Positions 34,054-49,378 of a stretch of DNA of 64,000 nucleotides are shown one piece after another. The notes below the pieces were generated by a model. It had not been told where the DNA came from. It worked only from the letters and a program-made list of their open reading frames with translations, and searched no databases. The DNA is from Escherichia coli (GTDB taxonomy: Bacteria > Pseudomonadota > Gammaproteobacteria > Enterobacterales > Enterobacteriaceae). Location: assembly GCF_044647545.1 (NCBI RefSeq), contig NZ_CP172818.1; one strand, 5' to 3'. The translations under genes and the position numbers were made by a program. Positions within the stretch are counted from its first letter, which is position 1. Every line of letters begins with the position of its first letter.

Positions 34054-35852
34054 TAGTAGACATCTCGCTGATAACGGCGCTCTACGCGCAGCTCACTTAA
34101 AAATTCATCCGCCGCTTCGGTGTCCATGCCACCAAATTCGGCAATCACTTCCAGAAGTGCCTGTTCAACGTCTTTCGCCATGCGATTAGCGTCGCCGCAG
34201 ACATAAATGTGGGCACCGTCATTGATCCAGCGCCACAGCTCTGCGCCCTGTTCGCGCAGTTTGTCTTGTACATAAACTTTTTCTTTTTGGTCGCGCGACC
34301 AGGCAAGATCGATACGCGTCAGCACGCCCTCTTTGACGTAGCGCTGCCATTCCACCTGGTAGAGGAAATCTTCCGTAAAGTGCGGGTTGCCAAAGAACAA
34401 CCAGTTTTTCCCCGGCGCTTCGTCGGCGGCGCGTTGCTGCATAAAGGCGCGGAACGGCGCGATGCCGGTGCCTGGGCCAATCATAATGACCGGCGTTTCC
34501 GGGTTCGCCGGCAGACGGAAGTTGTCGTTGTGCTCGATAAAGACGCGAACTTCGCCCTCCTCTTCGACACGGTCAGCCAGGAAGCTGGATGCACCGCCCG
34601 CGCGAGCACGGCCTTCGATGTCATAACGCACCACACCCACGGTCACGTGGACTTCGCTTTCCACTTCCGCCTGCGAAGAGGCGATAGAGTAAAGACGCGG
34701 CGTCAGTGGACGTAACAGGCCAACCAGCGCTTCTGCATCCAGCTGTGCTGGCGCGAAACGCACCATATCAACAATCGGCGTGGTGGCCGCATAGTGCTGC
34801 AACTTCGCTTTATCGCCCACTAACGGCAGCAAGGATTCGCTGCGCGTCAAGGTGGCGTAATTCTCAACGATGTTGGCCGTGTTGACGGTCAGTTCAAAAT
34901 GCCACTGTAGCGCCTCATTCAGCGGCAGGGTTTTGCCCTCAACGGTGACAGGTTCATCACCTTTCAGCCACAGCAGTTCGACAAGTTCTTTCACCAGTGC
35001 CGGATCGTTCTGATACCAGACGCCCAGCGCGTCACCCGGCTGGTAACGCAGGCCCGAGTCACCTAAGTCAATTTCGATATGGCGAACGTCTTTTTCAGAG
35101 TTACGCCCGGTAATTTTCTGGTTAACAGAGAGGCTCGCCACCAGCGGCGCGTCTTTGCTGTACGGGCTGGTGTGGATTTCATTTACCGCGCCAGTAGCGA
35201 CGGATTGCGAAGGTGCCGCGACAGGCGCACGCGATTTAAGCGCATCAACCACGCGGGCGCGCCACTCGCTGGCAGCGGCCTGATATTCAACGTCGGCATC
35301 GACACGGTCGAGCAGGCGTTCACCGCCCTGTTCCGCCAGCTTGCTGTCAAAATCTTTCCCGGACTGGCAGAAAAATTCATAAGAGCTATCGCCGAGGCTA
35401 AACACGGCAAATGCGGTGTTTTCCAGCTTCGGCGCTTTTTTGGAGAACAGGAACTTATGCAGCGCGACGGCTTCTTCCGGCGGTTCCCCTTCCCCTTGCG
35501 TTGACGTCACCACGATGAGCAGTTTTTCGCTGGCGATTTGTTTGAATTTATAGTCGCCCGCGTTCACCAGCTTAACGTTCAGTTTTGCCGCCAATAAATC
35601 ATCGCGTAATGCTTCAGCAACCCGGCGCGCATTGCCGGTTTGCGAGGCGGAGATAATAGTTATACCCGGCATTTCTGCGGCGGGCGCTGGCGTCGCTGCA
35701 AGCGCAGCAGGCTGCTGGTTGAGCACGCCCCAGAAATAGCCAGAAACCCAGGCAAGCTGGGTAGGAGTTAAATCGGTCGTGGCCGCCTGAAGGCGTGCCA
35801 GTTGCTCCGGGTTCAACGGAAGCAACGCGGAAGGTGGGACCTGTGTCGTCAT
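34053..35852 (-). CDS. cysJ: Sulfite reductase (NADPH) flavoprotein alpha subunit
   Basis: 599-aa ORF; flavodoxin and FNR-like domains; 1-bp overlap with cysI. Confidence 0.96.
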
Positions 35853-36167
35853 GCGTCGTTATGTTCCAGTAAGCAAAGCTGTTTCTGCGCCCTGTCAGCG
35901 CCCATAAAACAGAAGAGAAGGTAAGGTTAACGGGGTGAACGGTGTGGATTAAAGACGGGATAGCGATAACTAATAACCAAATCGACTAACCTGTTTTAGC
36001 AATAGTCTTTAACAACAAAATAGATTAACCAACCCAATGAAAAACAAATGAATATTGCCCATCAATAAGATAAATCAGCGATTTTGCGCAACAAAGTCGT
36101 TTTAGATAATGCGAAAAAACAGCCTTTCCGGTACTCTACGGCGGTTTTATCGTCATGTAGAGAAATT

Positions 36168-36533
36168 ATGATGTCCACCACGTTATTTAAAGATTTCACC
36201 TTCGAAGCCGCTCACCGCTTGCCGCACGTCCCACAAGGGCATAAATGTGGTCGCCTGCACGGGCATTCCTTTATGGTGCGACTGGAAATTACCGGGGAAG
36301 TCGATCCGCATACGGGCTGGATTATCGATTTCGCTGAACTGAAAGCGGCGTTTAAGCCAACCTACGAGCGCCTCGATCACCATTATCTCAATGATATTCC
36401 AGGTCTGGAAAACCCAACCAGCGAGGTTTTAGCAAAATGGATTTGGGATCAGGTTAAACCGGTTGTTCCGCTGTTAAGTGCGGTTATGGTGAAAGAAACC
36501 TGCACCGCAGGTTGCATCTATCGCGGCGAATGA
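36168..36533 (+). CDS. queD: 6-carboxy-5,6,7,8-tetrahydropterin synthase
   Basis: Start taken at [22 protein letters not shown] (121 aa). Confidence 0.92.
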
Positions 36534-36610
36534 TAAGAGTGTGTCGGCGGTCAATTTCCCTTAAGTAACGCTATGTTAGGGTGTTGTGTTCTGGATATTT
36601 GGGGCATGAC

Positions 36611-37882
36611 ATGGAAGACGACTGCGACATTATTATTATTGGTGCCGGTATTGCAGGCACCGCTTGCGCGTTACGCTGCGCGCGAGCGGGTTTATCCGTT
36701 TTGTTACTGGAACGCGCTGAAATCCCCGGCAGCAAAAATCTTTCCGGCGGGCGTTTATATACCCAGGCGCTCGCGGAACTCCTCCCACAATTTCATCTGA
36801 CCGCGCCTCTTGAACGACGCATCACTCACGAAAGCCTTTCCCTGTTAACGCCGGATGGCGCAACGACGTTTTCCAGCTTACAGCCCGGCGGTGAATCCTG
36901 GAGTGTATTACGTGCACGGTTCGATCCGTGGCTGGTTGCCGAAGCCGAAAAAGAAGGTGTCGAATGCATCCCCGGTGCGACGGTGGATGCGTTGTATGAA
37001 GAAAACGGCAGGGTGTGTGGTGTCATTTGTGGTGACGATATTCTCCGCGCCTGTTATGTGGTGCTGGCAGAAGGTGCCAACAGCGTCCTGGCTGAACGTC
37101 ACGGGTTAGTGACTCGTCCTGCTGGCGAAGCGATGGCGTTGGGGATCAAAGAAGTGCTGTCGCTGGAAACATCCGCTATTGAAGAACGTTTTCATCTGGA
37201 GAATAACGAAGGCGCAGCGTTGCTGTTCAGCGGCGGGATCTGTGATGACTTACCCGGCGGCGCATTTCTTTATACTAATCAACAAACGCTCTCGTTAGGG
37301 ATTGTTTGCCCGCTCTCTTCCCTTACGCAAAGTCGTGTTCCGGCAAGCGAGCTGCTGGCTCGCTTTAAAACGCATCCGGCAGTGCGCCCGCTTATCAAAA
37401 ACACGGAATCACTGGAGTATGGTGCGCATCTGGTGCCAGAAGGTGGCTTGCACAGTATGCCGGTGCAATACGCCGGTAACGGCTGGCTGCTGCTGGGCGA
37501 TGCGTTGCGCAGTTGCGTCAATACCGGAATTTCCGTGCGCGGCATGGATATGGCGCTAACTGGCGCGCAGGCGGCGGCACAAACGCTGATAAGCGCCTGC
37601 CAGCACCGCGAGCCGCAAAATCTGTTTGCGCTTTATCATCACAACGTAGAGCGCAGCCTGCTGTGGGATGTTCTACAACGTTATCAGCATGTTCCGGCGC
37701 TTTTGCAACGCCCTGGCTGGTATCGGGCGTGGCCTGCGTTAATGCAGGATATTTCCCGCGATTTATGGGATCAGGGTGATAAACCTGTTCCACCGCTGCG
37801 CCAGTTATTCTGGCGTCATTTACGTCGTCACGGCCTGTGGCATCTGGCGGGCGATGTTATCAGGAGTCTGCGATGTCTGTAG
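36611..37882 (+). CDS. ygcN: FAD-dependent oxidoreductase, FixC/ETF-quinone oxidoreductase-like
   Basis: Start taken at MEDDCDIIIIGAGIAG (dinucleotide-binding motif); 423 aa. Confidence 0.85.
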   Translation: MEDDCDIIIIGAGIAGTACALRCARAGLSVLLLERAEIPGSKNLSGGRLYTQALAELLPQFHLTAPLERRITHESLSLLTPDGATTFSSLQPGGESWSVLRARFDPWLVAEAEKEGVECIPGATVDALYEENGRVCGVICGDDILRACYVVLAEGANSVLAERHGLVTRPAGEAMALGIKEVLSLETSAIEERFHLENNEGAALLFSGGICDDLPGGAFLYTNQQTLSLGIVCPLSSLTQSRVPASELLARFKTHPAVRPLIKNTESLEYGAHLVPEGGLHSMPVQYAGNGWLLLGDALRSCVNTGISVRGMDMALTGAQAAAQTLISACQHREPQNLFALYHHNVERSLLWDVLQRYQHVPALLQRPGWYRAWPALMQDISRDLWDQGDKPVPPLRQLFWRHLRRHGLWHLAGDVIRSLRCL

Positions 37883-38133
37883 CCCGTAATCTCTGGCGCG
37901 TTGCCGATGCGCCGCACATTGTTCCGGCTGACTCCGTTGAGCGTCAGACGGTACAATGGTTGATTAACGCTTGTCCGGCTGGTCTTTTTTCGCTCACACC
38001 AGAAGGTGACTTACGTATTGACTATCGCAGTTGCCTGGAGTGTGGCACCTGCCGTTTGCTGTGCGACGAAAAAACACTACAACAGTGGCGCTATCCACCT
38101 TCCGGATTCGGCATCACCTACCGTTTTGGATAA
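37873..38133 (+). CDS. ygcO: Ferredoxin-like protein, FixX-like
   Basis: Start taken at MSVARNLWRV (86 aa); overlaps the ygcN 3' end. Confidence 0.8.
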   Translation: MSVARNLWRVADAPHIVPADSVERQTVQWLINACPAGLFSLTPEGDLRIDYRSCLECGTCRLLCDEKTLQQWRYPPSGFGITYRFG

Positions 38134-38149
38134 ATAATAAGGATAATTT

Positions 38150-38725
38150 ATGCCCCTCTTACACCTGCTCCGCCAGAATCCGGTGATTGCTGCCGTTAAA
38201 GATAATGCCAGCCTGCAACTGGCAATCGACTCTGAATGCCAGTTTATTTCCGTGTTGTACGGCAATATCTGCACCATCAGTCATATCGTCAAAAAGATTA
38301 AAAGTGCCGGGAAATATGCCTTTATTCATGTCGATTTGCTGGAAGGCGCATCGAACAAAGAAGTGGTGATTCAGTTTCTGAAACTGGTGACCGAGGCGGA
38401 CGGCATTATCAGCACGAAAGCATCGATGCTGAAAGCAGCAAGAGCGGAAGGTTTTTTCTGTATTCATCGCCTGTTTATTGTTGATTCGATTTCGTTTCAC
38501 AACATTGATAAGCAAGTTGCGCAATCGAATCCGGATTGTATTGAGATCCTGCCTGGCTGTATGCCCAAAGTGCTGGGCTGGGTGACGGAGAAAATCCGCC
38601 AACCGCTGATTGCTGGCGGGCTGGTGTGCGATGAAGAAGATGCGCGTAATGCGATTAACGCAGGTGTCGTGGCGCTTTCCACCACGAATACCGGGGTCTG
38701 GACGCTAGCGAAAAAATTGCTTTGA
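38150..38725 (+). CDS. ygcP: GlpP-family (glycerol-3-phosphate responsive) antiterminator homologue
   Basis: 191-aa ORF starting MPLLHLLRQNPVIAAVKDN. Confidence 0.8.
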   Translation: MPLLHLLRQNPVIAAVKDNASLQLAIDSECQFISVLYGNICTISHIVKKIKSAGKYAFIHVDLLEGASNKEVVIQFLKLVTEADGIISTKASMLKAARAEGFFCIHRLFIVDSISFHNIDKQVAQSNPDCIEILPGCMPKVLGWVTEKIRQPLIAGGLVCDEEDARNAINAGVVALSTTNTGVWTLAKKLL

Positions 38726-38760
38726 CGGGATAATCGTAACGAATTGAATTTGTGTGATTT

Positions 38761-38830
38761 GTAGGCTGTACGCCACATCGGACATTCAGCGCCTGATGCG
38801 ACGCTTGACGCGTCTTATCAGGCCTACAAG
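38761..38830. repeat. Pair of REP elements in inverted orientation (BIME-like) between the convergent genes ygcP and ygcQ
   Basis: gtaggctgtacgccacatcggacattcagcgcctgatgcgacgcttgacgcgtcttatcaggcctacaag. Confidence 0.7.
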
Positions 38831-38871
38831 TCCCCAGGCCAGAACCGTAGGCAGGATCATCCAGCAACACG

Positions 38872-39732
38872 TTATTGGCAATCTGCGTGAATGTTTGTCA
38901 CCATTGCCTCCAGCACCACTTTCCAGTCATCAACCACGCCAACATCTGCCTGTGAAAATACCGCTGCGCTGGCGTCATGATTAATCGCCACCACAAACTT
39001 GCTATTGCATACGCCCGCCATTAACGCTGCTGCGCCAGAAGCGCCAACAACAATACACACCTCAGGTGCCAGCAGATGTCCGGAAATACCAATCACTTTT
39101 TCAGCATCAACGCCACCGTTCATCACTCGCGCCCGACTGTAGCCCACTTCGGCTCCCAGCTTTTCTGCCAGCATAGCGATTTCCTGGTTATCTGCCTCTC
39201 CGCCCTGCCCCACCACCAGCACCCGTCTGGCTTCAGCTAATGGGTCGCGGGTAACATTTTTCAGGTTTTCTAGGCTAACCAGCCAGTCGGGAAGCGCGCC
39301 GGGGACAATGTTCAGTTGCTGCATCCCAGAGGGCAACGTGGCGTTTTTATCTGCTCCCGCCTGACGCGCCAGCGAAAGGCATAGCGGGCGTTTGTCTGTT
39401 TGCAGCGTCGCCGTCAACGCATTTCCCCAGTGGGATTTGCGCACGCTTACGGTTGGAATATCTAACGAAGTCACCTGGCAGATGCTTGCACCATGTAAAC
39501 GCCAGGCCAGCCGGGTCGACAGTTCATCGCCAAACGTTCCCGGCGGAAAGAGAACAACGTCCGCAGGCGTTCGCTGCCACTGTTCCACCAACGCATCCAG
39601 CACCTGTTCCGCCACTACGGGCTGAGGTTCAATCTGCCAGTGCGCCAGGGTACAACCGCTGAAATCCTGCGCCGCCAGCCAGCTCGCTATTGCGGCATTC
39701 TCCTGATTTATTGTCACAATTGCGATATTCAT
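38872..39732 (-). CDS. ygcQ: Electron transfer flavoprotein alpha-subunit-like protein
   Basis: Start taken at MNIAIVTINQ (286 aa). Confidence 0.85.
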   Translation of the reverse strand: MNIAIVTINQENAAIASWLAAQDFSGCTLAHWQIEPQPVVAEQVLDALVEQWQRTPADVVLFPPGTFGDELSTRLAWRLHGASICQVTSLDIPTVSVRKSHWGNALTATLQTDKRPLCLSLARQAGADKNATLPSGMQQLNIVPGALPDWLVSLENLKNVTRDPLAEARRVLVVGQGGEADNQEIAMLAEKLGAEVGYSRARVMNGGVDAEKVIGISGHLLAPEVCIVVGASGAAALMAGVCNSKFVVAINHDASAAVFSQADVGVVDDWKVVLEAMVTNIHADCQ

Positions 39733-40508
39733 GGCTGCATCCTTTGGCGTAAATAGTTCTGCCATAGCTTTTGCGCTTTTTCTGCTACCGTTTGCCCATC
39801 AATCAGCGTCGCTCCGCGTCGTTGCTCTGCTCTTGCCAGATGCAGACACTGCATCGCTGGCAATTCGACAGCAACAGTTTTACGGATAATTGCTGCTTTC
39901 CCCGCAGCCATTCGCTGGCGCATTCCCGGTACTGGCAAGGCCACTTCACCACACTGGCGCACGGCAATCACCGCAGGCAAGCGAACCCGGCAACAGCGCA
40001 GCCCGTTTTCAGTACGCTGTTCAAGGGTGATAAACGGCGCGTCGAGAGTAAAACGCTCCACCTGGGTGAAGCAGGGCCAGCCCAGCATTTCCGCCAGCAA
40101 AAATGGCGTTTGCCCATTCTGCCCTTCGCTGCTTTGGCAGCCGGTAATGATCAGATCCAGCGGATTCTGACGCTGCCATTCGGCAATATGGCGAGCGACA
40201 AATTCCGGCGCAAAGCGCAGATCTGCCACCGTCTCCAGCAATACAGCGTCCTCAAACCCAAGAGCCATGAGATAGCGCAGCCAGTGCAACGCCCGTTCAT
40301 CCCCCATGCTCAACGCGGTTAAAGACATCGGCGTACCGTTTTTTCTCTGCGCCAACAGCAGCGCGGCGGCAGCCTGTTCATCAGCACCGAGTAAACTTCG
40401 CAGTAGCGAAACATCTGGTCCAATATTACCCTGAGCCGCCGCCTGCCACTCTTTTTCCGCCAGCATTCCGGCATCCGGTTCGGCTTTAAACGCTAACAGA
40501 ATGTTCAT
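39729..40508 (-). CDS. ygcR: Electron transfer flavoprotein beta-subunit-like protein
   Basis: Start taken at MNILLAFKAEPD (259 aa); overlaps the ygcQ start. Confidence 0.85.
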   Translation of the reverse strand: MNILLAFKAEPDAGMLAEKEWQAAAQGNIGPDVSLLRSLLGADEQAAAALLLAQRKNGTPMSLTALSMGDERALHWLRYLMALGFEDAVLLETVADLRFAPEFVARHIAEWQRQNPLDLIITGCQSSEGQNGQTPFLLAEMLGWPCFTQVERFTLDAPFITLEQRTENGLRCCRVRLPAVIAVRQCGEVALPVPGMRQRMAAGKAAIIRKTVAVELPAMQCLHLARAEQRRGATLIDGQTVAEKAQKLWQNYLRQRMQP

Positions 40509-41823
40509 TCGCACCTCCTACATTTCCCGCCGCCACCAGCGGGAGTGCTTTGGTTTCTGGTGCCCATAGCCAGGTCACAACAAAACCAACCAACAACACT
40601 GCCGCCAGGAGCAATAAGGTGGCTTGCATTCCCCACTGCGCCAGCACCCACGGCAGCAGGCCAGTACTTACCGCCGCCCCCAACCGACTCATGGCGGTGG
40701 CAAAACCGACGCCCAGCGAGCGAATGTCAGTAGGAAAACTTTCCGCAGGCAAAATGCCCACCAGATTACTGACTGCCGAAATGGTGGTGCTGAAGAGAAC
40801 AAAAAGCAGCAGCGTTAATGAACTGCCGGAAGGCAAACAGGCCATCACTACCAGCGTTGCCGCCAGCAGCAAAAAACTTCCCAGCAAAAACTTGCGATGT
40901 GCCAGCAGGTGCGTCAGAACTAATCCCAGCAGCGCGCCCACAATTAACAACGCATTAAGCATCAGGCTGGCGGTCAGCGCATCCTCCAGACCAATAGTCT
41001 GGGCGATGGTCGGCAGCCAGGTATAAATCACAAACCATGGGATTACGAGGCAGACAAAGAAGACGCTGTTAAACGCCGTGCGTCGCCAGTAGCGCGAAGA
41101 AAACAAGGTTTTGATGTGTTTATGGGTCGCCGCTGCCACTTCATCGCCCAGTAAAACATGTGGCCCCAAATAGCGATGCACAATAGCGTGAGCTTCAGCA
41201 AAACGTCCCTGGCGCAGTAGCCAGCGTGGCGATTCCGGCGTGCCCCAACGTAGCAGCGTAATCAGCAAGGCTGGTAACGCCGCTGATGCCAGCAGCCAGC
41301 GCCAGGCCTCCGGGTTTTCGGAAATAAAGTGATGTCCGGCAATACTTGCCAACACATAGCCTACGGTCCACACCACGCTGAATGCGCCCAGTAAAATACC
41401 GCGATGGCGGCGCGGGGAAAATTCAGCCAGCAAGGTGTGACCGACTGAGTAATCGCCTCCCAGACCAATGCCGATCAAAATGCGCAGCCCAATAAGATGC
41501 TCTGGCGTGGTGGCAAAAAATTGCAAGAACGAAGCGAGCGTAATCAGCAAAAAGCTGAAGGTGAAGATTTTTTGCCGACCAATATGGTCGGAGATCCATC
41601 CAAGAACCAGGCTGCCAAGAAACAAACCAAGGAGTGCTGAGCCGCCAATCATTCCCGCCATAAACGGCGTCAGTTGCATGGCTGGAGTAAGCTGAATAAT
41701 GGCGTAACCAATGACGCCGAGGACATAACCGTCGGTCAGGTGCGCACCGAAAGTGAGCGCAGCAATGCGGCAGTGAAAACGGTTAAGTGGTAAATCATCC
41801 ATTCGCACCGGTGAAGTGTTCAT
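40486..41823 (-). CDS. ygcS: MFS sugar-transporter-family protein
   Basis: Start taken at MNTSPVRMDD (445 aa); the ORF track's 475-aa version is a 5' extension. Confidence 0.85.
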   Translation of the reverse strand: MNTSPVRMDDLPLNRFHCRIAALTFGAHLTDGYVLGVIGYAIIQLTPAMQLTPFMAGMIGGSALLGLFLGSLVLGWISDHIGRQKIFTFSFLLITLASFLQFFATTPEHLIGLRILIGIGLGGDYSVGHTLLAEFSPRRHRGILLGAFSVVWTVGYVLASIAGHHFISENPEAWRWLLASAALPALLITLLRWGTPESPRWLLRQGRFAEAHAIVHRYLGPHVLLGDEVAAATHKHIKTLFSSRYWRRTAFNSVFFVCLVIPWFVIYTWLPTIAQTIGLEDALTASLMLNALLIVGALLGLVLTHLLAHRKFLLGSFLLLAATLVVMACLPSGSSLTLLLFVLFSTTISAVSNLVGILPAESFPTDIRSLGVGFATAMSRLGAAVSTGLLPWVLAQWGMQATLLLLAAVLLVGFVVTWLWAPETKALPLVAAGNVGGANEHSVSV

Positions 41824-41916
41824 CTTTACCCCTTCATTGTCCGGTAATAAGAACGGCTTCTCGCCTGAGAAGCCGAAAAGGCAACGCCCCGTCATCGCGG
41901 AACGCTGCCTCACACA

Positions 41917-43371
41917 TTATTTTTCAATCGGATAGATAGTACCCGTATTCATAATGCCGTTAGGATCGAACTGTTTTTTCAGCCCTTCCAGCAACGTCCA
42001 CGCGCTGCCGTGTTCCAGTTTGCTCCAGTGAACGCGATGTTTACCAATACCGTGGTGGTGCACCATCGAACCGCCGAGACGAATGGTTTCTTCGCAGATG
42101 ATTTTGTTGAGCGGATTGTGGTACTTGTCGATTTCCTCTTCCGGCTTACAGTCAACGACGTTGTAGTCGTAGACGAAGTACATGTTGGTACCGTTCTGAT
42201 AGCTATGAGAGGAGTGACCGCCCAGCATGGTGATGTCGTCGGCGTGCGGGAACTCGGTACGAATACGGTTAATAACGCTTTCGTAGATTTCGTGGATGCA
42301 GCTCCAGCAGCCGGACACTTCGGTGGTAAAGCCCATGTTGCCGGTTTTGAGGATCTGCACACGTTCAGCGGCCACTTTATCCGGCCCCCAGTTCAGGTGA
42401 TTAAACCAGGTTTCGATCAGCTTGCTGTCCACGCGCTGGCATTGCGGGTAACGTGCCACGATTTCAGCAATCCCTTCGCCCGTCGCCTTCGCAATGCGAG
42501 GGTTACCTTCAGCCATAAAGATCAGCACGCATTTACCATCGGCAAAATGGGTGAAGTGTTGGGTGCCATCTTCAACGTCATATAAACGAGCGATCGACGG
42601 ACGATACCCTTCCACCATGATTTCACGCAGGATGTTGAAGCCGGTTTTCATATCTTCCAGGATATAGCCGTAGAAGAGGTTGTTTTCCGGGGTGAATTTA
42701 AAGATTTTCACTGTTACTTCAGTGATATAGCACAGTGCACCTTCGTTGCCGATGATGATGTGACGAATGTCCGGGCCAGCCGCGCGGCGTGGCACGTTTT
42801 TAATACGTGTGACGGTACCATCTGCCAGTACCGCTTCCAGACCAACGACCATATCTTCGATTGCGCCGTAGAGTGTGGAGAACTGCCCGATACTGCGGGT
42901 TGCTACCAGGCCGCCCATCTGCGCCAGCGGTTTTGATTGCGGTGAATGCCCCGTGGTGTAACCTTTTTCACGCAACGCGTTTTCCAGCACCTCCAGCGGA
43001 ACGCCACATTGCGCCGTGGCCTGCATATTCTCAATATCAATATTAATGATTTGATTCATGGCAGAGCCGTCGAGCACCACCGAGTTTTCCACAACGGTTT
43101 CCAGCCCGCCTTCAGTGGCGGAAGCACCGGTACGCGGCACACCGTTAATTTTGTGCGCATTCATAAAATTCAGCACACGGGACACTTGTTCTGTGGAACC
43201 GAGTTTTACGACCGCTGCCGGAATCGGCAAAGTATAAATGCCATGAATATCCGGAAATTTGCGAAAACGGTCAATACTGTTTTTCTTTAATACTGTTTCA
43301 TCGGTAATTACGCGATCTGCACCAACAATTTCCTTTAGCTGGTCGACAATCGCTGCGCGAGATAAAGACAT
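41917..43371 (-). CDS. ygcU: FAD-linked oxidase (alkyl-DHAP synthase / D-lactate dehydrogenase-like)
   Basis: 484-aa ORF. Confidence 0.85.
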   Translation of the reverse strand: MSLSRAAIVDQLKEIVGADRVITDETVLKKNSIDRFRKFPDIHGIYTLPIPAAVVKLGSTEQVSRVLNFMNAHKINGVPRTGASATEGGLETVVENSVVLDGSAMNQIINIDIENMQATAQCGVPLEVLENALREKGYTTGHSPQSKPLAQMGGLVATRSIGQFSTLYGAIEDMVVGLEAVLADGTVTRIKNVPRRAAGPDIRHIIIGNEGALCYITEVTVKIFKFTPENNLFYGYILEDMKTGFNILREIMVEGYRPSIARLYDVEDGTQHFTHFADGKCVLIFMAEGNPRIAKATGEGIAEIVARYPQCQRVDSKLIETWFNHLNWGPDKVAAERVQILKTGNMGFTTEVSGCWSCIHEIYESVINRIRTEFPHADDITMLGGHSSHSYQNGTNMYFVYDYNVVDCKPEEEIDKYHNPLNKIICEETIRLGGSMVHHHGIGKHRVHWSKLEHGSAWTLLEGLKKQFDPNGIMNTGTIYPIEK

Positions 43372-43440
43372 AGTAATTCCTTCCTGATAATAAAAATGGA
43401 ATAATCATTAATAAGAGAAAACAGAAACCACCGTTATGGA

Positions 43441-44226
43441 TTAGCGCACTAAATAACCGCCATCGACCACTAATAAATGCCCGTTAACATAATTTGAAGC
43501 CGGACTTGCGAGGAAGACGGCTGCGCCCATTAAATCCTGTGTATCGCCCCAACGGTTTGCCGGAATATGATCAAGAACGCGCTGATTAGTTTCAGGATTA
43601 CTGCGTGTCGCCAGCGTAATATCTGTTGCATAATAACCTGGAGCAATACCATTTACCTGAATATTATATTGACCTAGTTCATCACAATAAGCTTTGGTGA
43701 ATCCAGCAAGAGCATGTTTAGTTGCAGAATATGCAGGTGACCATTGTCCACCTAAGTAAGAGAACAATGAACAGATATTAATAATTTTACCGCTTTTCTG
43801 CGGGATCATAATTTTTGCCGCTTCGTAGCTTAACTCGAATGCGGCGGTCAGGTTCACATCAATCATCGGGTCCCAGTCGGCACGACCGAAGTCCAGCACC
43901 TTATTCAGCTTACAAATACCGGCATTGTTAACCAGAATATCTACGGTACCGAAGCGCTCACAGCAGGCAGCGATAATCTTCTGCGGCGCGCCTTCTGCGG
44001 TGATATCCACCTGCATAAAATCAACTTCGACACCCTGTTTTTCAATCATTTCCTTTGTTTCGCCGTTATCTTTGACGAAGCTAGGGATAAAGACATTTGC
44101 GCCAGCTTTGGCCAACGCCATGGCAAATGCCTGGCCTAAACCGCTATTCCCGCCGGTAACAATTGCTGTTTTACCTTTCAGGGAGAAAAAATCCATTGAG
44201 AACGCATTGAGAGATTCGATTGACAT
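43441..44226 (-). CDS. ygcW: Short-chain dehydrogenase/reductase (SDR)
   Basis: Start taken at MSIESLNAF (261 aa); TGGNSGLG cofactor motif. Confidence 0.85.
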   Translation of the reverse strand: MSIESLNAFSMDFFSLKGKTAIVTGGNSGLGQAFAMALAKAGANVFIPSFVKDNGETKEMIEKQGVEVDFMQVDITAEGAPQKIIAACCERFGTVDILVNNAGICKLNKVLDFGRADWDPMIDVNLTAAFELSYEAAKIMIPQKSGKIINICSLFSYLGGQWSPAYSATKHALAGFTKAYCDELGQYNIQVNGIAPGYYATDITLATRSNPETNQRVLDHIPANRWGDTQDLMGAAVFLASPASNYVNGHLLVVDGGYLVR

Positions 44227-44250
44227 AGTTAGCTCCAATTTCCGTAAGGC

Positions 44251-44297
44251 AAAAAAAAAGAAAGGTAACTTCCCCCGCGAGAGGGAAGTTACCTTTC
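44251..44297 (-). terminator. Intrinsic-terminator-like hairpin (14-bp stem gaaaggtaacttcc, 9-nt loop) followed on the minus strand by U9, lying in the ygcW 5' leader about 25 nt upstream of the start codon; candidate attenuator
   Basis: Near-perfect inverted repeat 44260–44297 with the a9 run 44251–44259 on the plus strand (U9 on the minus strand). Confidence 0.6.
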
Positions 44298-44544
44298 TCA
44301 TTATCTCTGGTAACTGGAGATAATTTTTAGCATAAGGGCATAAGCGCTAATGTGATCGTAATCACAGTGTGATATTCGTATTATCAAATAATTTTAAAAA
44401 GCAGAAGCGTGACTACTCTCACACAACACCACTGCTTTCCATGTTATTTCTTATTGCAATTACTAGAGACCTGAGAAAAGTAATCCACCTGAAAGGGCGG
44501 CTTACTTTTCTCTTTTTTTTGTCTATTACAAATGGGAATACGAT

Positions 44545-45822
44545 ATGCAACACAACTCATATCGCCGTTGGATAACCCTCGCGATAATTAGTTTTAGCGG
44601 CGGCGTTAGTTTCGACCTGGCTTATTTACGTTATATTTATCAAATTCCCATGGCGAAATTTATGGGATTCAGCAATACCGAGATAGGTTTAATAATGAGT
44701 ACCTTTGGTATTGCAGCTATTATTCTTTATGCGCCCAGTGGCGTTATTGCCGATAAATTCTCACATCGCAAAATGATTACTTCCGCGATGATCATTACCG
44801 GATTACTGGGTCTGTTAATGGCAACTTATCCACCGCTGTGGGTAATGCTCTGTATTCAGGTCGCCTTTGCGATAACGACGATTTTAATGCTGTGGTCGGT
44901 GTCGATTAAAGCCGCATCGTTGCTGGGCGATCATAGCGAGCAAGGGAAAATTATGGGCTGGATGGAAGGGCTGCGCGGCGTCGGTGTAATGTCGCTGGCG
45001 GTGTTTACCATGTGGGTCTTTTCTCGCTTTGCACCGGATGACAGCGCCAGCCTGAAAACGGTCATTATCATCTATAGTGTGGTTTACATCTTGTTGGGGA
45101 TTCTGTGCTGGTTTTTTGTTAGCGATAACAACAACCTGCGCAGTGCCAATAACGAAGAAAAACAATCATTCCAGCTTAGCGACATCCTGGCTGTTTTGCG
45201 CATCAGCACCACCTGGTATTGCAGCATGGTGATTTTTGGCGTCTTCACCATCTACGCCATTCTGAGTTACTCCACCAACTATCTCACCGAAATGTACGGC
45301 ATGTCGCTGGTGGCGGCGAGCTACATGGGGATTGTGATCAACAAAATATTCCGCGCGCTGTGTGGTCCACTTGGCGGCATTATCACCACCTACAGTAAAG
45401 TGAAATCCCCTACCCGCGTAATTCAAATCCTTTCCATCATCGGCCTGCTGGCACTGACTGCCCTGCTTGTTACCAACTCTAACCCGCAATCGGTCGCTAT
45501 GGGGATTGGCCTGATTTTACTACTGGGATTCACCTGCTACGCCTCACGTGGACTGTACTGGGCCTGCCCCGGCGAAGCGAGAACACCGTCTTACATTATG
45601 GGCACCACGGTAGGTATTTGTTCGGTGATTGGATTCCTGCCGGATGTCTTCGTTTACCCGATTATCGGCCACTGGCAAGACACCCTGCCCGCTGCAGAAG
45701 CCTACCGCAACATGTGGCTAATGGGCATGGCCGCGCTTGCCATGGTGATCATCTTTACCTTTTTGCTGTTCCAAAAAATTCGTACTGCTGATAGCGCCCC
45801 CGCAATGGCTAGCAGCAAGTAA
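44545..45822 (+). CDS. yqcE: MFS transporter
   Basis: 425-aa hydrophobic ORF. Confidence 0.85.
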   Translation: MQHNSYRRWITLAIISFSGGVSFDLAYLRYIYQIPMAKFMGFSNTEIGLIMSTFGIAAIILYAPSGVIADKFSHRKMITSAMIITGLLGLLMATYPPLWVMLCIQVAFAITTILMLWSVSIKAASLLGDHSEQGKIMGWMEGLRGVGVMSLAVFTMWVFSRFAPDDSASLKTVIIIYSVVYILLGILCWFFVSDNNNLRSANNEEKQSFQLSDILAVLRISTTWYCSMVIFGVFTIYAILSYSTNYLTEMYGMSLVAASYMGIVINKIFRALCGPLGGIITTYSKVKSPTRVIQILSIIGLLALTALLVTNSNPQSVAMGIGLILLLGFTCYASRGLYWACPGEARTPSYIMGTTVGICSVIGFLPDVFVYPIIGHWQDTLPAAEAYRNMWLMGMAALAMVIIFTFLLFQKIRTADSAPAMASSK

Positions 45823-45848
45823 GCCAGGAAAATTACAGGAGAAAAATC

Positions 45849-47327
45849 ATGTCGAAAAAATACATCATAGGGATTGATGGCGGAAGTCAGAGCACAAAAG
45901 TGGTGATGTACGATCTGGAAGGTAATGTGGTTTGCGAAGGCAAAGGCTTATTGCAGCCGATGCACACGCCAGATGCCGATACCGCAGAACATCCTGACGA
46001 CGATTTATGGGCATCATTATGTTTTGCCGGTCACGATTTGATGAGTCAGTTTGCCGGAAATAAAGAAGATATTGTCGGTATTGGTCTGGGATCCATCCGT
46101 TGCTGCCGTGCGTTATTGAAAGCCGATGGCACGCCAGCTGCGCCGTTGATTAGCTGGCAGGATGCACGCGTTACACGCCCTTACGAACATACGAATCCTG
46201 ACGTGGCATATGTCACCTCTTTTTCAGGTTATCTGACGCATCGCTTAACCGGCGAGTTTAAAGACAATATCGCCAACTATTTTGGTCAGTGGCCGGTGGA
46301 TTATAAGACCTGGGCATGGAGTGAAGATGCCGCAGTCATGGAGAAGTTTAATATCCCCCGTCATATGCTGTTTGATGTGCAAATGCCGGGCACTGTTCTT
46401 GGGCATATCACTCCTCAAGCCGCGCTGGCGACACATTTCCCAGCTGGGCTGCCGGTTGTTTGTACCACCAGTGATAAACCGGTAGAAGCTCTGGGAGCCG
46501 GATTACTGGATGATGAAACGGCGGTGATTTCTCTTGGCACCTACATCGCGCTGATGATGAACGGTAAAGCACTGCCGAAAGATCCGGTGGCGTACTGGCC
46601 GATTATGTCTTCTATTCCGCAAACATTGCTGTATGAAGGTTACGGTATTCGCAAAGGCATGTGGACGGTGAGCTGGCTGCGCGACATGTTAGGCGAGTCG
46701 TTAATTCAGGATGCCAAAGCACAGGATCTTTCACCGGAAGATTTGCTCAACAAAAAAGCGTCTTGTGTGCCGCCTGGCTGTAATGGTCTGATGACGGTGC
46801 TGGACTGGCTGACCAATCCGTGGGAACCATACAAACGCGGGATTATGATCGGCTTTGATTCCAGCATGGATTACGCATGGATATATCGTTCGATACTGGA
46901 AAGCGTGGCGCTGACGCTGAAGAACAATTACGACAATATGTGTAATGAAATGAATCACTTTGCAAAGCATGTGATCATTACTGGCGGCGGTTCGAACAGC
47001 GATCTGTTTATGCAGATTTTTGCCGACGTGTTCAACCTTCCGGCACGCCGTAACGCCATTAATGGTTGTGCAAGTCTGGGGGCAGCGATCAATACGGCGG
47101 TAGGTCTGGGGCTATACCCGGATTACGCAACGGCTGTCGACAAAATGGTTCGCGTGAAAGATATCTTTATGCCTGTTGAGAGCAACGCCAAACGCTACGA
47201 CGCGATGAATAAAGGCATTTTCAAAGACCTAACCAAGCACACTGATGTGATCCTGAAAAAATCGTATGAAGTGATGCATGGTGAGCTGGGGAATGAAGAT
47301 TCGATCCAGAGCTGGTCGAATGCGTAA
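45849..47327 (+). CDS. ygcE: FGGY-family carbohydrate kinase
   Basis: 492-aa ORF starting MSKKYIIGIDGGSQSTKVV. Confidence 0.85.
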   Translation: MSKKYIIGIDGGSQSTKVVMYDLEGNVVCEGKGLLQPMHTPDADTAEHPDDDLWASLCFAGHDLMSQFAGNKEDIVGIGLGSIRCCRALLKADGTPAAPLISWQDARVTRPYEHTNPDVAYVTSFSGYLTHRLTGEFKDNIANYFGQWPVDYKTWAWSEDAAVMEKFNIPRHMLFDVQMPGTVLGHITPQAALATHFPAGLPVVCTTSDKPVEALGAGLLDDETAVISLGTYIALMMNGKALPKDPVAYWPIMSSIPQTLLYEGYGIRKGMWTVSWLRDMLGESLIQDAKAQDLSPEDLLNKKASCVPPGCNGLMTVLDWLTNPWEPYKRGIMIGFDSSMDYAWIYRSILESVALTLKNNYDNMCNEMNHFAKHVIITGGGSNSDLFMQIFADVFNLPARRNAINGCASLGAAINTAVGLGLYPDYATAVDKMVRVKDIFMPVESNAKRYDAMNKGIFKDLTKHTDVILKKSYEVMHGELGNEDSIQSWSNA

Positions 47328-47335
47328 GTGAGGAA

Positions 47336-47359
47336 GACCGGGCGGGAAACTGCCCGGCC
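47336..47359 (+). terminator. Short GC hairpin (ccgggc / gcccgg) after ygcE; weak terminator candidate
   Basis: 6-bp stem, no clear T-run. Confidence 0.3.
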
Positions 47360-47374
47360 TGAACATACCTGAAT

Positions 47375-47511
47375 GGTTATCCCCGCTGACGCGGGGAACA
47401 TAAGTTCGACAACTTAAAAAATGATAACAAGTCCGGTTTATCCCCGCTGATGCAGGGAACATAATAAAAACTTTAACTAGTTCGTTTATCCCTGTTGTTA
47501 CAAGGAATATT
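47375..47511 (-). CRISPR. Degenerate CRISPR remnant: three decayed type I-E-like repeats
   Basis: ggttatccccgctgacgcggggaacat; cggtttatccccgctgatgcagggaacat; cgtttatccctgttgttacaaggaatat. Confidence 0.75.
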
Positions 47512-47964
47512 AACTACACTCGATGTCTTTAGAATAAAAGACAATACGAATCGCACTTTATCAATTTTCACTTAAAGTATGAACTGGATATCTTTATTCA
47601 TAAGAACTATTCATCAACAGCGTATAGAGGCGGTTATGTAAAACCACTCATTAGCCTCAAAACAAAGACAAACTTCCAGATTTATTACTTAATCAATGAA
47701 TAACAAGCTTAAAAAATACACTGTTATTCTAAAGAAAAAATTAACAGGCATTAATTAATATTAAAAAAAATAATATATTAAAATTTCTTAACGGTTTAAG
47801 GATTATACAAATAACACTTTGATTAAATTTGATTTTTTGTATCGATAATTGTGAACTTATCTGGCATGGAGAACTATTTTGAACATGAGGTGTTATGTGG
47901 ATATGTTGCTTATTACAAGTACAGCTAATATAAAAACTTGAGAAAGAGATAACGGGTTATATGG

Positions 47965-48367
47965 TGGTTCATCCCCGCTGGCGCGGGGAACACGTCTTTT
48001 TGACCGGCCGGTAAATCGTCTGCCTGCGGTTTATCCCCGCTGGCGCGGGGAACACAAACCATTCTCGCAATCAAGGACTATTCCTAGACGGTTTATCCCC
48101 GCTGGCGCGGGGAACACGGTCGCAGGGAATACAAAGCCGTGCATCCTGCTCGGTTTATCCCCGCTGGCGCGGGGAACACTGGCTCTGCAACAGCAGCACT
48201 ATGACCCCGTCGGTTTATCCCCGCTGGCGCGGGGAACACGAAAAGCTTATGATCGTTAATGCCGCAAACACCGGTTTATCCCCGCTGGCGCGGGGAACAC
48301 ATTACACCTATGTGCGAGCGCCCGGTTTTTGCCGCTAGCGGTTTATCCCCGCTGGCGCGGGGAACAC
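47965..48367 (-). CRISPR. Orphan CRISPR array, 7 repeats and 6 spacers, repeat variant ending GAACAC (plus strand CGGTTTATCCCCGCTGGCGCGGGGAACAC)
   Basis: Repeat starts at about 47965, 48027, 48089, 48151, 48211, 48272, 48339; the first repeat is a variant (ggttcatcc). Confidence 0.95.
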
Positions 48368-48706
48368 TCTAAACATAACCTATTATTAATTAATGATTTT
48401 TTAAGCCAGTCACAATCTACCAACTTTATAGTATCACACAAACAACACATCCATTATGTTAAAGAGCACTTAATCCATTGATTAAAAAGGTAAATATTTA
48501 AAATAACTCTATACAAACTAAAATCTACCAAACTTTACCGCAATAATTTTCACTCCAGCGAAAAATTAACGCCACAGAATTTGTAGAGAATGATAATGAT
48601 TAGTTCAGGATGGGCAAGATGGATGAGTTTTCAGAGGCGACAAACAATATAAATGAGTAGAAGTCTTTACAGGTTCCACCCATTTATAACGCTTATAAAT
48701 GTTTAA
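48368..48706 (-). promoter_or_regulatory. AT-rich leader of the second CRISPR array
   Basis: AT-rich segment adjoining the most conserved repeat; begins tctaaa like the array 1 leader (tctaaaag). Confidence 0.6.
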
Positions 48707-49378
48707 TCAGGCAATATTTAGATATTTATGTGTTTGCATCGACAAACGCCAATTACGCGCAATGCAGGTTTCAATGCACAAACGTGTGGCATCATCCTTT
48801 TGGCTAATCGGCTGCAGTGCAATGACTCGCGGTTTATCATCGGTCAGCGTTGCCAGTAGTTCATCCAGTGCTTCAATATCACGTACGCGCCCCACTGGAT
48901 GCTTGATTTCGTTGGCTCGCTCCAGTGCCTGTGACAACACTTCATAGCCGCCGCGCATGTTCAACTTTGGTGATACGGTAACCCAGGTATTCGGTGTGCA
49001 GCGTACCTCATGAGTACCACTGGTTTCGATCTGGCAGCTAAAACCGTTCTTTTCGAGCAGATCAGTCAGTGGCAGCAAATCATGAATGCAAGGCTCACCA
49101 CCCGTAATCACCACATGCCGTGCGGTGTATCCCTGGCGACCAATGACAGCCAGCAAATCTTCACTGCTCGCAGCCCCCCACTTATCACTCTCTTTGGTCT
49201 TCGCCAGAATGCTGAAAAGGGAGACTTCCCGATCCTCAAGCTTTTCCCAGGTGTGTTTGGTGTCGCACCAGGCACAGCCAACCGGGCATCCCTGTAAACG
49301 AATAAAAATGGCGGGGACGCCGGTAAAGTAACCCTCACCTTGCAGGGTCTGGAACATCTCGTTAATCGGGTACTGCAT
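48707..49378 (-). CDS. queE: 7-carboxy-7-deazaguanine synthase (radical SAM)
   Basis: 223-aa ORF; Cys motif CPVGCAWC. Confidence 0.92.
   Translation of the reverse strand: MQYPINEMFQTLQGEGYFTGVPAIFIRLQGCPVGCAWCDTKHTWEKLEDREVSLFSILAKTKESDKWGAASSEDLLAVIGRQGYTARHVVITGGEPCIHDLLPLTDLLEKNGFSCQIETSGTHEVRCTPNTWVTVSPKLNMRGGYEVLSQALERANEIKHPVGRVRDIEALDELLATLTDDKPRVIALQPISQKDDATRLCIETCIARNWRLSMQTHKYLNIA

Follow-up and report, generated by a model that had tools for sequence, protein, structure and literature searches.

What controls the divergently transcribed ygc and yqc genes of Escherichia coli is the question raised by a 318-bp region that runs from the ygcW ATG (44226) to the yqcE ATG (44545) and contains two leaders, W and E, facing in opposite directions. 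Positions are those of the window, the whole 64,000-nucleotide stretch of DNA that was analysed. The gene order is queD, ygcN-ygcO-ygcP (plus strand), ygcQ-R-S-U-W (minus strand) and yqcE-ygcE (plus strand), followed by a CRISPR array. The encoded proteins, an SDR, an FAD oxidase with ETF, an FGGY kinase and MFS transporters, make up an uncharacterised catabolic cluster. Three genes are central to the argument.

38150..38725, plus strand: ygcP, GlpP family (PF04309), the proposed antiterminator, named from its Pfam match and synteny
43441..44226, minus strand: ygcW (SDR), the first gene 3' of leader W
44545..45822, plus strand: yqcE (MFS transporter), the first gene 3' of leader E, followed by the ygcE kinase gene

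The sequence-only reading had placed an intrinsic terminator in the ygcW leader and proposed the GlpP homologue YgcP as the factor that relieves it. The analysis leads to a broader form of that proposal. CRP-activated promoters, termination by default and YgcP-dependent antitermination of both operons is the preferred reading, with a probability of about 0.72. A 471-bp segment of the region was found in 5,066 of 5,426 complete E. coli genomes, at a median of one place per genome, and over the query it is 100% identical to the E. coli FDAARGOS_497 chromosome.

Leader W precedes ygcW on the minus strand. In the direction of transcription it consists of the following elements.

44314..44309, minus strand: antiterminator helix 5' strand GUUACC, transcript +2 to +7, pairing with GGUAAC
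44308..44294, minus strand: purine-rich loop AGAGAUAAUGAGAAA, the proposed YgcP contact, whose 3' half also starts the terminator 5' arm
44293..44288, minus strand: antiterminator helix 3' strand GGUAAC, common to the terminator 5' arm
44299..44258, minus strand: terminator hairpin GAGAAAGGUAACUUCCCUC-UCGC-GGGGGAAGUUACCUUUCUU, core stem ending at C44260
44259..44251, minus strand: U9 tract, invariant across Enterobacterales
44236..44233, minus strand: ygcW ribosome-binding site GGAG, then ATG at 44226..44224

The succession of hairpin, U9, ribosome-binding site and ATG is thus present as originally described, but the stem is 15 bp or more rather than 14. It has 15 perfect Watson-Crick pairs, or 19 when G-U pairs and an extension at the base are included, and a loop of 4 nt; at its foot, two pairs (44258-59 with 44298-99) run into the U-tract. 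Folding of the leader, which had been suggested as a check, gave -42.4 kcal/mol with z = -5.8 against 200 shuffles. In the ORF listing ygcW is 25 codons longer and starts at an ATG in the loop of leader W (ORF 43441-44301, minus strand). This start is an artefact: conservation is lacking for the ATG at 44301, and the ribosome-binding site belongs to the annotated start at 44226.

The terminator of leader W has a twin. The stem pattern GAAARGTAA...TTACYTTTC occurs twice in the 64-kb window and in none of 100 shuffles, and the second occurrence lies before yqcE on the plus strand.

44459..44484, plus strand: E antiterminator hairpin, AUUACU (44459-64), loop AGAGACCUGAGAAA (44465-78) and AGUAAU (44479-84)
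44473..44512, plus strand: E terminator hairpin, covariance model score 74.8 bits
44513..44520, plus strand: E U8 tract, with the yqcE ATG 24 nt further on

The E and W leaders share one layout; what distinguishes them in the lower stem is a compensated change, G-C to A-U. U44484 is paired in the E antiterminator helix and stands opposite a C in the terminator. The sequence-only reading had named the minus-strand genes ygcW-ygcU-ygcS-ygcR-ygcQ as the regulated set. These are included, but they are not alone; the twin leader before yqcE implies that the set comprises both divergent operons, ygcW and the genes after it and yqcE-ygcE. No further copy was found before ygcN, ygcP or other genes in the window and about 1.26 Mb of related loci.

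Both leaders are transcribed and terminated in vivo, as published data sets show. The K-12 leaders are identical to those of the window, and K-12 v3 coordinates equal window positions plus 2,856,047. To place the published transcription starts, a v2-to-v3 shift of the K-12 genome, presumably of 1,978 nt, was applied. As a check on the conversion, the starts reported in PMC4681348 are 143 nt apart, which equals the distance between the homologous A residues at 44315 (CAGUUAC) and 44458 (CAAUUAC).

44315..44319, minus strand: ygcW leader transcription start cluster (ecr2774; PMC4681348, Table S5 and TSS list)
44458..44459, plus strand: yqcE leader transcription start (ecr2775; PMC4681348)

Using dRNA-seq and northern analysis, Romero 2014 (PMC4681348) catalogued ecr2774 (73 nt, minus strand) and ecr2775 (63 nt, plus strand) in this same intergenic region, with class I start sites for both and a positive northern for ecr2775. 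They were labelled "potential novel sRNAs, simple stem-loop, perhaps REP-like". Their 3' ends convert to about 44246 and 44521 in the window. Term-seq (Adams 2021, PMC7815308) independently recorded 3' ends at 2900311(-), with 40,640 reads, and 2900556(+), with 1,557 reads. With Rho scores of 0.50 (W) and 0.61 (E), both ends are called "No" for Rho; as intrinsic terminators they score 15.8 and 11.4, and neither carries an annotated regulatory element. In window terms the Term-seq ends fall at 44264 (W) and 44509 (E), 4-5 nt before the U tracts, which suggests trimming back to the stable part of the stem. The short Rho-independent RNAs accumulate in LB and in M9-glucose.

Thus each leader has an intrinsic terminator between its transcription start and the start codon, and the upstream starts together with the short Rho-independent RNAs mean that both terminators work in vivo. 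For ygcW this bears out the original claim: hairpin and U9 are preceded by the mapped start, and the short terminated transcripts that had been proposed as a check exist in the dRNA-seq and Term-seq data (PMC4681348, PMC7815308). Neither a start downstream of the hairpin nor full read-through, the two outcomes named as adverse to the claim, is what these data report.

Upstream of the starts, each leader has its own promoter with a CRP-type site at the class II position.

44324..44332, minus strand: extended -10 TGCTAAAAA of the ygcW promoter, inferred from its distance to the start, in a conserved block
44351..44366, no strand assigned: CRP site 1 TGTGATCGTAATCACA, a perfect and conserved site, centre 44358.5, about -41.5 from the ygcW start
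44408..44423, no strand assigned: putative CRP-like site 2 CGTGACTACTCTCACA, centre -42.5 from the yqcE start
44442..44450, plus strand: extended -10 TGTTATTTC of the yqcE promoter, inferred from its distance to the start, conserved

ChIP in ETEC and an in vitro footprint (Kd 1.7 nM) have demonstrated that CRP binds site 1, which PhyloScan also predicts. With its centre near -41.5, site 1 therefore marks a class II CRP-dependent promoter. Published ChIP and footprint data list site 1 only, not site 2. The CGTGAT-N5-CTCACA of site 2 is kept in 14 of 14 aligned species, and in the same 14-species alignment the spacer between the W and E modules is not conserved.

As a possible competitor of the terminator, the sequence-only reading had pointed to the inverted repeat TTATCTC (44323..44317)/GAGATAA (44307..44301). 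The repeat is present in the DNA, but it fails as a competing structure: other genera do not conserve it, and transcription starts within its upstream arm or after it. The real competitor in leader W is the covarying helix of GUUACC (44314..44309) with GGUAAC (44293..44288). Each of the two transcripts opens with RUUACY, complementary to an RGUAAY in the terminator 5' arm, and these strands enclose a loop of 14-15 nt, AGAG-N4-5-GAGAAA, in which GAG and GAGAAA are invariant across an alignment (A1) of 83 distinct leaders.

In these 83 leaders the antiterminator helix is 99% paired (16-62% in slid controls), with two-sided changes at three of its six pairs; for the terminator helix, pairing is 91% and two-sided changes affect seven pairs. 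Many of the paired changes separate the W and E lineages, so that they represent few independent events. One position is the last base of RGUAAY (position 33), which pairs with the first base of RUUACY (position 3) as G-C in 61 leaders and as A-U in 21. Position 33 is unpaired in the terminator in 55 of the 83. A base that pairs in the antiterminator and is mostly unpaired in the terminator shows that selection acts on the alternative helix itself.

Folding of the growing transcript gives the order of events. The 5' hairpin forms first, at -4.7 to -6.2 kcal/mol in W and -1.4 in E, and the terminator then supplants it, at -31 in W and -20.5 kcal/mol in E. The series favours the terminator, which argues for termination by default and for a factor that holds the 5' hairpin when polymerase reads through.

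The distribution of the element was followed in 64 species loci that were retrieved by scanning with YgcP, so that co-occurrence is assessed within YgcP-retrieved loci. In nearly all of about 60 species loci, ygcP adjoins homologues of ygcW, ygcU, ygcE and yqcE. Both leaders are present in about 50 Enterobacterales species. The covariance model R1 detects two full copies per Enterobacterales locus, no more and no fewer, and these are in each case the W and E leaders; the window also has two. By the same type of search the element lies before a ygcU-ygcP-yqcE-ygcW-ygcE operon in five Listeria species, and also occurs in Bacillus sp. DNRA2 (two copies), Thalassobacillus, Lachnoclostridium and Faecalibacterium. 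Vibrio hannami and Fodinisporobacter each have it as a divergent pair, and Sporomusa has it before an SDR operon and before a BCCT transporter gene. In these YgcP-retrieved loci the element always stands before cluster operons, in the sense orientation, whatever the gene order or transporter type. In further loci the helix varies, as GUUGCU/AGCGAC (Listeria), GUUUC/GAAAC (Faecalibacterium), GUUGCC/GGCGAC (a MAG) and AUUGC/GCAAAU, and the GAG..GAG loop is kept.

Some loci have features of their own. The clusters of Vibrio hannami, Sporomusa and Fodinisporobacter (L076, L077, L078) carry a BCCT or OpuA-type transporter beside or instead of the MFS transporter, and such betaine/choline/carnitine-like transporters may be a hint on the substrate. 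In Limnobaculum eriocheiris (L032, 13887-13950) the ygcW-yqcE spacer is about 130 bp long and has a single hairpin between A9 and T9, an arrangement that recombination of the inverted copies, with loss of the two promoters and the two 5' hairpins, could have left. In Citrobacter youngae and Klebsiella spallanzanii (L010, L012) an ERIC (IRU)-like insertion of about 125 nt lies between the E terminator and yqcE, which puts the yqcE start codon 150 nt from the terminator, not 24.

The cluster itself is a mosaic. Over window positions 36611-47327, compared with loci L006-L029, E. coli and Citrobacter share 92-97% identity in YgcP, YgcW and YgcU, and only 58-77% in YgcN, O, Q and R; this suggests that two parts of the cluster may have different histories. 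A GC-rich hairpin, CGGCTTCTC-AGGC-GAGAAGCCG, lies between ygcU and ygcS (41854-41875, minus strand). Mixta, Pluralibacter and Citrobacter sedlakii have an equivalent hairpin with other stem bases and a T run just before the ygcS start, and the structure may attenuate transcription internally or stabilise the mRNA. With the RefSeq start of ygcS (MTGRCLF...) the coding sequence would run through this hairpin, and translation therefore probably begins further downstream, at MNTSPV. Where ygcP and ygcQ converge (38751-38824, plus strand), Rfam scores naRNA4 at 31.9 bits, below its gathering score of 59.5; a REP-type element is the likeliest cause. The CRISPR repeat array downstream of ygcE (1,251 bp, about 47965-49215) is taken from the RefSeq annotation of the identical strain FDAARGOS_497; cas genes are absent from the annotation of the stretch shown.

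The candidate for the holding factor is YgcP. As had been proposed, it is a GlpP homologue: it matches PF04309 (G3P_antiterm) over its full length with E = 2.8e-62 (Pfam), its solved relatives 3KTS and 1VKF are TIM-barrel-like, and its gene lies with the genes to be regulated. Relief of the terminator in the B. subtilis glpD leader has been reported for GlpP together with glycerol-3-phosphate. The glpD 5' UTR contains GGUC-CUGAGAUGAGGAGA-GACC, and the GACC strand begins the terminator 5' arm. The ygc leaders resemble this leader by eye and by folding, glpD being the only B. subtilis leader compared. Three distant PF04309-linked leaders (L068, L073 and L074) are built likewise, as GCUA-GAGAGAUGAGAGUA-UAGC, GGGU-CGGAGAUCAGGAGAU-GCCC and GGC-GGAGAUGAAGAGA-GCC, and the covariance model gives only 15 bits on the first of them. 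At four others among the eight distant representatives (L069, L071, L072, L075), no clear motif was found beside the PF04309 gene. The loop-helix design may thus be general across the family, as is only partly shown by these comparisons.

The proposed mechanism combines these elements. The intergenic region consists of two mirror-image modules. In each, a CRP-type site at the class II position and an extended -10 promoter precede a leader some 65 to 90 nt long, and CRP would activate both promoters. The first 28 nt of each leader form the small hairpin, a 6-bp RUUACY/RGUAAY helix closing the AGAG-N4-5-GAGAAA loop. The 3' half of this hairpin doubles as the 5' arm of the strong terminator, some 24 nt ahead of the start codon. 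Unless a factor intervenes, the far more stable terminator replaces the 5' hairpin and transcription stops, yielding the 63-73 nt RNAs seen in vivo. When the inducer is present, ligand-bound YgcP would bind and lock the 5' hairpin. The locked hairpin would withhold GAGAAARGUAAY from the terminator, and RNA polymerase would read into ygcW-ygcU(-ygcS-R-Q) and yqcE-ygcE. By analogy with glycerol-3-phosphate for GlpP, the inducer is probably a phosphorylated product of the YgcE kinase. In this picture the RNA structures with their conservation and covariation, the transcription starts, the Rho-independent 3' ends and the binding of CRP at site 1 are observed, and the role of YgcP and its ligand, the induced read-through and the reach of the operons are the proposed part.

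Two extensions of this mechanism are doubtful. First, the leader RNAs might act in trans, as YgcP decoys that set the induction threshold or as Hfq-dependent sRNAs. Both terminated RNAs carry the full putative YgcP-binding hairpin and an sRNA-like terminator with a U tail, and the W RNA is very abundant under uninduced conditions. Second, and separately, the GAGA..GAG loop might be a general recognition element for PF04309 proteins.

The helix/terminator switch itself is well supported, and YgcP is its candidate factor; the 28-nt hairpin could instead bind a metabolite, as a very small riboswitch, or be held by another protein, with YgcP having its role elsewhere. No Rfam 15 family matches within 44226-44545 (cmscan, E <= 1, over 35000-49000), which leaves an unknown RNA class possible. 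However, the aptamer would be just a 6-bp stem and a 15-nt loop, and glpD, whose reported regulator is GlpP, has a loop of the same type in its leader. In addition the element is found strictly with PF04309 genes in every lineage examined, these loci having been retrieved via YgcP. A switch that dispenses with YgcP is therefore unlikely, and the terminator of leader W is probably relieved by the GlpP-type protein YgcP.

Another reading accepts the listing of ecr2774 and ecr2775 as "simple stem-loop" candidate sRNAs (PMC4681348). The hairpins would then be constitutive terminators of independent RNAs, trans-acting or functionless, and ygcW and yqcE would be transcribed from other promoters. The abundance of the W RNA in Term-seq (40,640 reads, PMC7815308) agrees with such a product. 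The geometry does not: about 24 nt separate the U tract from the start codon, which leaves no room for another promoter. A conserved alternative helix would also be purposeless in a plain sRNA terminator, and the element is always sense and directly 5' of cluster operons, in any gene order and in Gram-positives too. Independent sRNAs are thus quite unlikely.

It is very improbable that the hairpins are REP-like or other dispersed extragenic palindromes devoid of a specific regulatory role, as the "perhaps REP-like" entry of the Romero table (PMC4681348) might suggest. They are palindromic, and one intergenic region holds two inverted copies. REP and ERIC-type palindromes, however, occur in many copies at unrelated sites. 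The 64-kb window has only two copies, the related loci (1.26 Mb) have two apiece, and the 471-bp region maps once per E. coli genome in the median. The element keeps its position and its sequence from Gammaproteobacteria to Firmicutes, and scans with Rfam and for REP-type elements gave no match at the hairpins. Ribosome-mediated attenuation by a leader peptide from ATG 44301, to which the ygcW frame extends, is barely credible, given that neither the E leader nor most other species (GAAGAGAAAAG, CCTGAGAAAAG) have this ATG, that it lacks a Shine-Dalgarno sequence and that no stop codon follows it before ygcW.

The preferred reading, YgcP-dependent antitermination at both leaders, joins observations that had remained separate. 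It accounts for ecr2774 and ecr2775 and for the two Term-seq 3' ends, for which neither source paper offers an explanation, and it gives the ten-gene ygc/yqc cluster a concrete regulatory handle. The sequence-only reading knew of no description of the leader. No published link between an attenuator here and YgcP was found, but the short RNAs, the 3' ends and the CRP site are all in published data sets; the literature search likewise found nothing that ties ygcP, ygcW, yqcE, ecr2774/5 or PF04309 to attenuation of these RNAs. The mechanism as such is already known from GlpP in Bacillus. What is new here is the regulon, the host lineage, the two divergent leaders and the explicitly defined antiterminator hairpin. 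If the reading is correct, this would be the second protein-dependent antitermination system in E. coli K-12, besides bgl. We know of no other GlpP-type system in a Gram-negative bacterium. A leader-reporter fusion should then light up with the true substrate, so that the function of the pathway becomes directly testable. The hairpin defined by covariation also offers a precise, mutable RNA target for a protein family that has no structural description of RNA recognition. Were the loop general to PF04309 (more than 1,200 clusters at 50% identity), it would represent a widespread class of protein-dependent riboregulators that is missing from Rfam.

Three known systems invite comparison. HutP and TRAP recognise NAG/GAG triplet repeats. 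The single-stranded GAG triplets of the ygc leaders, 2-5 nt apart, resemble the targets of such recognition, a likeness offered as a lead; the ygc leaders, however, have two or three triplets only, placed in a hairpin loop, and the protein fold is unrelated. The closest parallel in logic within E. coli is the RAT element of the BglG/SacY/LicT family, of which the bgl operon is the classic E. coli example. There too a protein-stabilised 5' hairpin overlaps the terminator 5' arm ahead of a catabolic operon. BglG/SacY-type regulators have CAT and PRD domains, whereas YgcP has neither, PF04309 being its only strong match, and the RNA motif is unrelated. Nor is PTS-linked control evident for ygc; the other cluster genes encode enzymes and transporters.

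GlpP of B. subtilis is the nearest system. Both have a PF04309 regulator encoded beside its targets and an intrinsic terminator in the 5' UTR, and in glpD, as in ygc, a short helix surrounds a GAGA...GAG purine loop and its 3' side starts the terminator 5' arm. The differences are in the setting. GlpP acts on glpD, glpFK and glpTQ; the ygc target is another catabolic cluster, not glp genes, and the host is Gram-negative. E. coli glp genes are controlled by the GlpR repressor. In addition ygc has two divergent leaders on class II CRP promoters and a 6-bp helix with a fixed RUUACY; binding of YgcP to these leaders is putative, and its ligand is probably not glycerol-3-phosphate. The shared design of helix, loop and terminator nevertheless places the ygc leaders in the same class of RNA as the known GlpP target.
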